DNA from: Eledone cirrhosa
Lineage: Eukaryota
DNA: 64,000 nucleotides
NCBI GenBank assembly: GCA_964016885.1
Contig: OZ024742.1
Span: forward strand, 74,090,001-74,154,000
Reading direction: 5' to 3'
The translations under genes were made by a program, and so were the position numbers. The number at the start of each line of letters is the position of its first letter. The first letter of the stretch is position 1. Shown here in pieces: positions 24,937 through 26,653 of the stretch. The notes below the pieces were generated by a model. The model had not been told where the DNA came from, did not search any database, and saw only the letters and a program-made list of their open reading frames with translations.

Positions 24937-25532
24937 AAATAATGAATAAAACAATGAAACAGTTCCTTATATTAAACAAAAAAAGTTCATTATTTAACGA
25001 TCGTTTCTAGGATATATATGTGTTAGAATTGGCATGCATATTCAACAGATCTATGTACAAAATTATACAAAATTATACAAACTATCAAAATTAAATATAC
25101 ATACCAAACACATATATATGCCGTCTTCAGAAATAATATATATATATAGTCCTCCGCTGTTTGTTGTTTTGATATTCAAAACAACAAACAGCGGAGGACG
25201 CGTTTCGCACTTTCCGACAGACAATCTTTCCCCCGCCCCGGAAAAAAACCCCAGTTGATGGATGTGAATCCGAAATATATACGGACAATTAAATCTCTCC
25301 CAAGGTAACTCTCTCTCTCGTGTTGTTATTTTAATTTTATCCTTTATACTCTTTCCTTCATTCTTCTACACGTCTTATACACACCACGCATCTCAACGTA
25401 CACCCACTTACATCTCTCTCTCCACCACCGGATCTTGTTACCCGGAGATTTACCCATTTGCATTGTCGAGGCTTCCAAACGACTTAAAGATATTTACCTA
25501 TTATTCCACAATGCTTCAAGCAAACTTCAATA

Positions 25533-25626
<94 letters not shown>

Positions 25627-25914
25627 CAAATAACGAAACGAAATTAAATTTCGTTTCGTTTGTAACTCACTTTTGTATGACTGACGCTTAAACAATTAAG
25701 TTAAAAATGTACATCCACATATGTATACTGAAATACTAGTATGCATATGAATACACACACGTATACATATGTAGATGTACCGACTTTTTCACTGGTCACG
25801 TTACTGTGAGTGTCCAGCTATTCTGTATGTAAACACACAGACAAACCGGTTTTTAGAGTCATACTGGTTTTTGAGGAAACACCTTTCCTCTATTCTTCAG
25901 AAAGCCAGACAAGG

Positions 25915-25959
25915 AATATTGAACTAGTCTCGTTGTTGTTACAACTCATCAGCAATATT
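25915..25959 (-). ncRNA. Hammerhead ribozyme copy with GAAA>GAGA core change (probably inactive)
   Basis: Reverse complement of 26350-26394 except caacGAGActag. Confidence 0.8.
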
Positions 25960-26349
25960 TACCTATCTTCCAGCCTTTCTAGAGAATCGTAAAAGCACAT
26001 ATCGTTATATGCTTTTTCTATGAAAATTAGTAGTGGGCAGACTAATTTGCATAGAGCGTGAGTACGTACCGGTTCAACGGAGACGATAAAAACAAATAAC
26101 GAAACGAAATTTCAGTATACATATGTGGATGTACATTTTTAACTTAATTGTTTAAGCGTCAGTCATACAAAAGTGAGTTACAAACGAAACGAAATTTAAT
26201 TTCGTTTCGTTATTTGTTTTTATCGTCTCCGTTGAACCGGTACGTACTCACGCTCTATGCAAATTAGTCTGCCCACTACTAATTTTCATAGAAAAAGCAT
26301 ATAACGATATGTGCTTTTACGATTCTCTAGAAAGGCCGGAAGATAGGTA

Positions 26350-26394
26350 AATATTGCTGATGAGTTGTAACAACAACGAAACTAGTTCAATATT
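26350..26394 (+). ncRNA. Intact minimal type I hammerhead ribozyme
   Basis: aatattg-CTGATGA-gttgt-aaca-acaac-GAAA-ctag-tt-caatatt: 7-bp stem I, 5-bp stem II with G10.1-C11.1, palindromic stem III, GUU site. Confidence 0.9.
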
Positions 26395-26608
26395 CCTTGT
26401 CTGGCTTTCTGGAGAATAGAGGAAAGGTGTTTCCTCAAAAACCAGTATGACTCTAAAAACCGGTTTGTCTGTGTGTTTACATACAGAATAGCTGGACACT
26501 CACAGTAAAGTGACCAGTGAAAAACTCGGTACATCTACATATGTATACGTGTGTGTATTCATATGCATACTAGTATTTCAGTATACATATGTGGATGTAC
26601 ATTTTTAA

Positions 26609-26653
<45 letters not shown>

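Follow-up and report, generated by a model that had tools for sequence, protein, structure and literature searches.

Here we describe a young and genuine insertion of a hammerhead retrozyme, non-autonomous and of Penelope type, found in a window of 64,000 nucleotides (the whole stretch of DNA analysed) from Eledone cirrhosa. Its family is an abundant, young, non-coding 466-nt hammerhead repeat and represents a new addition to the animal non-LTR retrozymes, which are non-autonomous Penelope-like elements. Our results suggest that the family is inserted by a Penelope-like RT-endonuclease from both nicked target strands, probably by copying round a predicted RNA circle made by the ribozyme, a reading to which we give a probability of about 0.6. 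The value of the data lies in family-wide footprints that constrain the Penelope insertion mechanism, rather than in the single locus.

Architecture of the insertion

Two arms lie back to back in (TA)n, and each is longer than the 466-nt unit (492 and 504 nt), as the sequence-only reading had proposed. With phase 1 of the 466-nt unit set at position 26109, the features of the locus are:

25538..25622, no strand: left (TA)n target microsatellite (TRF)
25620..26111, minus strand: left arm, 492 nt, 1.06 units, phases 90-581 (90-466 then 1-115), 'long' 3' end
25620..25696, minus strand: Penelope-type 'tail', phases 39-115, at the left-arm end only
25632-25660: 13-bp hairpin inside the left-arm tail
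25915..25959, minus strand: type I hammerhead whose core has a private change, GAAA>GAGA at 25929
26086..26111, minus strand: left-arm read-through overlap, 26 nt, repeated at 25620-25645, spacing 466
26109..26111, no strand: back-to-back junction, 3-nt microhomology ATT common to both arms
26109..26612, plus strand: right arm, 504 nt, 1.08 units, phases 1-504 (1-466 then 1-38), 'short' 3' end
26350..26394, plus strand: intact type I hammerhead (7-bp stem I, CUGAUGA, stem II GUUG/CAAC, GAAA, palindromic ACUAGU stem III, GUU)
26575..26612, plus strand: right-arm read-through overlap, 38 nt, repeated at 26109-26146, spacing 466
26611..26645, no strand: right (TA)n target microsatellite (TRF)

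The terminal repeats at a spacing of 466 were recovered one base away from where they had been placed (25620/26086 and 26109/26575), and both 3' ends adjoin the (TA)n tracts delimited by TRF, as read before. Where about five substitutions between the arms had been estimated, exactly five were counted (25784, 25800, 25897, 25929 and 25972); all five set the left arm against the family majority and none falls on the right arm (chance about 0.06). The gaaatttc micro-palindrome noticed earlier does mark the place where the arms meet; it amounts to a 3-nt ATT overlap of two arms with different phases. The earlier statement that there is no meaningful ORF also stands: the longest ATG ORF inside the 466-nt unit has 50 aa, and no RT plus GIY-YIG ORF was found there. 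The unit is predicted to fold at -165 kcal/mol (z = -11.3 against 100 shuffles). Rfam microRNA matches around the locus were rejected as microsatellite noise.

The window locus has one hammerhead per strand and no two consecutive hammerheads on one strand. It could therefore not release a monomer, and is a product of the cycle rather than a source of circles, an ordinary and probably inert member of the family.

Conservation of the hammerhead ribozyme

One hammerhead per arm had been called, and Rfam Hammerhead_HH9 matches were found on both strands, at 26339-26410 (plus strand, 37.7 bits, E 3.8e-7) in the right arm and at 25899-25970 (minus strand, 34.3 bits) in the left arm, both scoring under the gathering score of 52. 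The GUU of the right arm ends at 26387, as noted earlier, and cleavage is predicted directly after this position. The motif had been called 'minimal'; by the definitions in the available text of PMC4209133 it belongs instead to the canonical metazoan type I hammerheads, and its stem III, short and palindromic, is of the kind described there as typical of metazoan type I motifs. In the folding model, the cross-paired dimer comes to -12.4 kcal/mol, versus +2.2 kcal/mol for a monomer with stem III closed. The unit hammerheads are thus predicted to be dimer-competent, with stem III closure costing energy in the monomer and being favourable in the dimer.

The G at the GAGA site (25929), also read correctly before, occurs in 1 of 43 arms covering this site. 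This change affects A14 and presumably inactivates the left-arm ribozyme. Across the family, the ribozyme core is conserved among inherited variants: these occupy 0 of 15 core and stem III sites and 109 of 427 other sites (p 0.028), a selection test that rests on 15 sites. Private mutations strike both core/stem III sites and other sites. At the stem II pair 257/268, a compensatory swap is present in 19-20 of 44 loci.

Copies of the unit in the genome

We searched the 3.0-Gb assembly and counted copies by sequence patterns. A 30-nt hammerhead pattern gave 5,173 exact matches genome-wide against 0 for the control, an undercount because a second common stem II haplotype escapes the pattern. Many of these matches stand in runs, minus-strand units being followed by plus-strand units. 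The long-end pattern adjoining TA gave 2,269 matches. The short-end pattern gave 817 forward and 2,210 reverse matches, which were not taken as copy number because its variable gap inflates the count. Together with the tandem non-coding unit and the type I hammerhead, the thousands of copies bear out the earlier description of a retrozyme-like element.

Loci were mapped around the first 100 hammerhead matches, in 80 end-pattern stretches and in 20 rare-variant stretches, most of the loci lying within the first 118 Mb of contig C1. Overlapping duplicate loci, L124 (a duplicate of L123) and the unmapped junctions of L137 and L151 were excluded before counting, and the analysis of 5' ends leaves out arms with cut or odd ends. 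L123 and L124 (G000:C1:55967300-55990000) contain the same insertion twice, 17.7 kb apart, and represent a segmental or assembly duplicate. The repeat is tandem with a period of 466-468 nt, in arrays of up to about 69 units. In the longest of these (G000:C1:81847000-81880300), one arm spans 33 kb in about 69 units, whose periods are a mixture of 464-469 nt, and the opposite arm has 2 units; the locus is a satellite forming out of a single insertion.

Two fixed 3' ends and the pairing rule

The 3' ends of the family lie at phase 113-116 ('long') or at phase 36-47 ('short'), and nearly all mapped 3' ends adjoin (TA)n or TA-rich repeats. Long and short ends are paired in 66 of 70 complete two-armed loci, and long/long or short/short loci number 0; short/short loci would be invisible in most of the sample, because those loci were picked by the long end. 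The 73 two-armed loci comprise 65 classed as long/short, L139 (115/41), four with one odd end and three cut by the fetch; 56 of them were fetched via the end pattern (55 via the long end). In the set picked by the hammerhead alone, 16 of 17 loci are long/short, the window included. In 55 of 77 long-end loci there is a partner arm with a length of at least about 40 nt, and 8 of the remaining 22 have a short-end mini-arm. As a test for target-site duplication, flank pairs were compared, and direct matches occurred in 12 of 73, within intrinsically repetitive DNA.

The extra stretch carried by one arm only is a Penelope 'tail', and the arm phases reflect two fixed start sites combined with scattered 5' truncation. 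The phase mapping of copies that the sequence-only reading had called for thus gave, in the sampled loci, two fixed 3' phases and scattered 5' ends. That the window arms differ in phase was correct; the free choice of phase that this had implied was not, since with two fixed 3' sites, one per arm, the priming point is not freely chosen. The pairing is in line with the earlier proposal that both target strands primed cDNA, as they appear to have done.

Junctions between the arms

Among 71 mapped junctions, 41 have no extra bases and 30 have extra bases, often copied from nearby; the latter figure is an upper bound, because exact extension halts at mutations. Arms overlap by at least 3 nt in 13 of the 41 junctions without extra bases, compared with 6% in simulation (p 5e-7). 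The 5' phases of the two arms are independent, lying within 10 nt of each other in 3 of 71 loci against 3.2 expected. Independent 5' phases and overlaps together fit two separately ended cDNAs united by end-joining, and do not fit fold-back.

We looked for a pile-up of arm 5' ends at the cut site and rejected it, as phases 276-284 contain 4 ends against 2.4 expected. An excess was seen at phases 286-306 (13 against 5.9 expected, in a range picked after looking), which also fits stalling at the base of the long hairpin. At L177:770-839, about 70 nt of GC-rich foreign sequence is caught between the arms; this insert has no credible match in Rfam.

RT-GIY-YIG elements in the same genome

A GIY-YIG search of the genome returned 10,597 candidates, 150 of which were scored. 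The genome contains ORFs of 635-1,096 aa that combine RT with GIY-YIG; a Pfam scan of three long-ORF proteins detected RT in all three and GIY-YIG in two. The long-ORF proteins have a cysteine linker resembling that of the Neptune and Nematis clades as described in the available text of PMC8557442. Two-armed (TA)n insertion with a one-arm tail of 33-63 nt was found in 5 of 10 ORF-bearing loci, with 2 more plausible and 3 ambiguous. The two-armed footprint is not special to circular or small RNAs.

At L081 the copy spans the 4,979 nt between two successive hammerheads and continues into the tail; it is a large version of the more-than-unit-length arm. L081, L082, L086, L089, L090 and L093 form a young RT-GIY-YIG family, about 97% identical, with ORFs of up to 938 aa. 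The L081/L082 family hammerhead has U3-A8 and an ACCGGT palindrome, and its protein is a candidate enzyme. A partner search by BLAST and DNA profile returned only the sister retrozyme described below and TA-rich noise, and among 50 GIY-YIG loci of about six families no autonomous element had sequence in common with the unit.

Circular or linear template

The earlier claim that copying ran beyond the unit junction holds across the family: 77 of 134 arms exceed one unit, 105 pass the cut site and 45 pass two cut sites. An indel accompanies 2 of 458 cut-site passes. Since so many arms pass one or two cut sites, passes rarely carry an indel and 5' ends do not pile up there, a cleaved linear monomer is not the usual template.

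Haplotypes bear on what the template was. In 59 of 62 loci both arms differ at no more than 5% of 68 common variable sites, against a between-locus mean of 35%. The both-arm haplotypes of 44 loci number 41 and are mostly 1-2 changes apart, as expected with repeated isolation of single units. In 42 multi-unit loci, 208 variants are confined to a single unit, 28 occur in several units of one arm and 7 are cross-arm. Young arrays of 20 and about 27 units contain 0 and 2 variant units over both arms. Clear mixing of haplotypes was seen in 2 loci among 206 arms. L013 carries different haplotypes on its two arms, and in L188 (G000:C5:63087300-63097200) successive units of each arm alternate between two haplotypes, which suggests a dimeric circle or a higher-order source array. 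Because of these two loci, a single monomer circle was not always the template. In one case, the array at L199:1265-6306 (small contig C744), two subfamily haplotypes switch within phases 279-349, cut site included.

Two candidate arguments were rejected. Array length has no value by itself as proof of rolling-circle copying, because arms duplicate after insertion, as is evident at L043, L047, L103, L139 and L152. Locus-private variants do not serve as proof of a monomer template either, because all four rare variants tested recur at other loci (45, 288, 69 and 75 matches). The lengths of the two arms are uncorrelated (rho 0.11, p 0.38, n 68), as are arm length and divergence (age). A 496-nt contig (466+30) in the public run X6 fits a circle and a tandem array equally. 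No RNA run with the unit was listed among 6 public runs, which carries no information on expression. On the junction phases, the single-haplotype arms and the conserved ribozyme core, we favour a circular template at somewhat better than even odds and place a linear read-through RNA second.

This second reading keeps the two-strand Penelope-type insertion and takes as template a linear read-through transcript of a tandem array, with the hammerhead serving 5' processing or protein binding and the arrays being regenerated by local duplication after insertion. We regard it as unlikely, yet as a serious contender. It would accommodate the homogeneous arrays of 17-29 units, the rare haplotypes common to several long homogeneous arrays (possible linear sources), the real expansion after insertion and the A/B alternation of L188 on both arms, and unprocessed RNA is the dominant in vitro substrate in the available text of PMC11167929. 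However, old arrays are heterogeneous, yet cross-arm unit variants make up 7 of 243, and both the scarcity of haplotype mixing and the 41 haplotypes in 44 loci speak against copying from such arrays. Linear templates of up to 8 kb would also have to survive 17 dimer-competent hammerheads, and the cut site lacks a 5'-end pile-up.

The other explanations are all improbable. An inverted arm produced by self-priming (fold-back) on one nascent strand or antisense template was proposed for rotifer Penelope elements from junction palindromes (PMC3846280, available text). It agrees with L039, where both arms meet at phase 21 in an 8-nt palindromic junction, and with the enrichment of 5' ends near the tail hairpin (16 against 8.7 expected, phases 61-90). 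We consider it very improbable, as the arms end in different fixed 3' sites, their lengths are unrelated and their 5' phases are independent. The idea that the arms belong to an ordinary autonomous Penelope-like element, as the truncated ends of its pLTRs, has, by our estimate, a marginally smaller chance. The footprint is like that of autonomous elements, whose insertions are mostly 5'-truncated according to the available text of PMC8557442. The sequence-only reading had named fixed ends attached to a Penelope ORF as the mark of an ordinary pLTR; the ends are indeed fixed, but no fetched copy is joined to such an ORF. In the mapped loci, arms pass into flank, into an inverted arm or into more units, of which as many as 17 were fully mapped, and never into an ORF; the unit is a repeat or pLTR of an autonomous element in 0 of 50 GIY-YIG loci (about six families), and copies of the unit or its sister close to an ORF are insertions of their own in (TA)n. 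A chimera of the library or, as raised earlier, of the assembly is hardly credible. The junction of the window locus is bridged by no contig listed from four public runs (contig kind unspecified); the arms, however, differ at five sites, end at two different conserved sites and follow the pairing rule of the family. Contigs from the public runs show both fixed ends adjoining TA and 10 other left-to-right arm joints (9 in X1 and 1 in X5, with sides of just 25-30 letters).

A model for two-strand insertion

We then propose a model for insertion round a circle, our preferred reading. A locus with at least two same-strand hammerheads would be transcribed, cut by hammerhead dimers and ligated into a 466-nt circle. 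A Penelope-like protein would bind this RNA and nick both strands of (TA)n, whereupon cDNA synthesis would begin at phase 115 from one 3'-OH and at phase 36-47 from the other. Each cDNA would continue beyond the unit junction and end independently, and the two cDNA ends would be united by end-joining. Some arms may later grow through local duplication.

More tentatively, at a little less than even odds, the insertions may be a record of rolling-circle reverse transcription of a viroid-like circle by a protein dimer, with one start site per active site and strand. If this is true, the Penelope tail and the inverted pLTR would be explained by a dimer with strand-committed start sites, and animal retrozyme circles would be true transposition intermediates. 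Both the origin of the Penelope inverted repeats and one-sided tail and the use of retrozyme circles as insertion templates are open in the papers cited here. The family leaves countable footprints: strict long and short pairing, independent junction phases, single-haplotype arrays and a conserved core. It also offers a small substrate of 466 nt on which two start sites are mapped, and the genome that carries it encodes intact candidate enzymes; together these make the question of circle versus linear template testable in vitro.

Comparison with known systems

In LINE-1 twin priming, primers from the two target strands are used and the inversion is joined via microhomology. As the second LINE-1 primer anneals upstream, different parts of one RNA are copied into the two arms. 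The present family differs in that the start points of its arms are some 70 nt from each other and the sequence copied is the same.

Animal non-LTR retrozymes, as described in the available text of PMC7229834 and 10.64898/2026.07.22.740005, share with the 466-nt family a non-coding tandem unit with one type I hammerhead, low GC, a strong fold, thousands of copies and Penelope-like elements in the genome. Both sources propose mobilisation by Penelope-like elements, and PMC7229834 proposes that a circular template gives tandem cDNA. The unit of 466 nt is larger than the 170-400 nt given in PMC7229834 and inside the 51-972 bp given in 10.64898/2026.07.22.740005. Expression and circles are demonstrated for published retrozymes, whereas the present data on the 466-nt family are genomic. 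Homology of pLTRs to a partner was shown for Xenopus (10.64898/2026.07.22.740005), in contrast to the result at the 50 GIY-YIG loci; 8 of 9 retrozyme dimers in the Xenopus study gave no cleavage. The available texts of PMC7229834 and 10.64898/2026.07.22.740005 contain no insertion-end maps or two-armed arrays, and the word 'inverted' occurs 0 times in the former and once in the latter. The available text of the Octopus vulgaris repeat annotation (PMC13282606) makes no mention of ribozymes.

EN+ Penelope-like elements, in the available texts of PMC8557442, PMC3846280 and PMC4209133, resemble our family in their partial tandem, inverted 5'-truncated copy, one-end tail, microsatellite targets and hammerhead in the repeat. 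PMC4209133, from 2014, reported hammerhead pairs on opposite strands, 100-700 bp apart, in Schistosoma and put forward a circle as the template for copying more than one unit. The 466-nt family is unlike these elements in having no ORF, a tail of 69-77 nt rather than 30-40 and multi-unit arms; its tailed arm is strictly paired with a tailless arm, whereas the tail of EN+ elements is described as optional. Its junction phases misfit the self-priming model of PMC3846280.

Poseidon PAc (PMC11167929, available text) nicks and extends both strands of AT-rich DNA in vitro, as proposed here, and begins reverse transcription inside the RNA at two sites bounding the tail. It uses the same start sites on both strands, while the 466-nt family has one site per strand. 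Hammerhead cleavage is dispensable for Poseidon PAc in vitro, in contrast to the core conservation in the inherited variants of our family. Chlamys MRC1 (PMC8557442, available text) is likewise a non-autonomous Penelope-like element with pLTRs and multicopy head-to-tail insertions; by the same text, the Naiad/Chlamys group is without canonical hammerheads and MRC1-type elements resemble the 3' end of their autonomous partners.

The sequence-only reading had taken the twin-primed, permuted architecture as undescribed, which does not stand: the inverted arm and one-sided tail (PMC8557442, PMC3846280), two-strand, two-site priming (PMC11167929), opposite-strand hammerhead pairs and the circle-to-tandem idea of more-than-unit copying (PMC4209133, PMC7229834) are already in print in the texts available. 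No retrozyme insertion-end map or strict long and short pairing was found in the literature searched, mostly open-access texts without supplements. What the family adds is junction phases that speak against fold-back, one haplotype on both arms (59/62) and conservation of the core.

Related hammerhead repeats

A sister hammerhead repeat, about 65-70% alike, is present at L091:7702-9920, L093:3090-3665 and L075:2692-3234, and also at L016, L047, L153 and L180. It is tandem and lies in (TA)n, its stems I and II differ from those of the 466-nt unit, and it ends at the two homologous sites. Other hammerhead families have a long palindromic stem III (e.g. around the TATATATA palindrome), some of them as opposite-strand pairs (L032:2913, L033:6506, L084:993, L175:3341-3567, L144:140-307 and L086:333). 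Within the window, the stretch at 33342-34191 matches L090, L135, L048 and L192 in both orientations and represents another repeat family with an inverted structure. Upstream of the arms, a near-perfect hairpin of about 60 nt (25132-25211) directly follows a (TA)n run; a different family may have inserted there as two very short arms.
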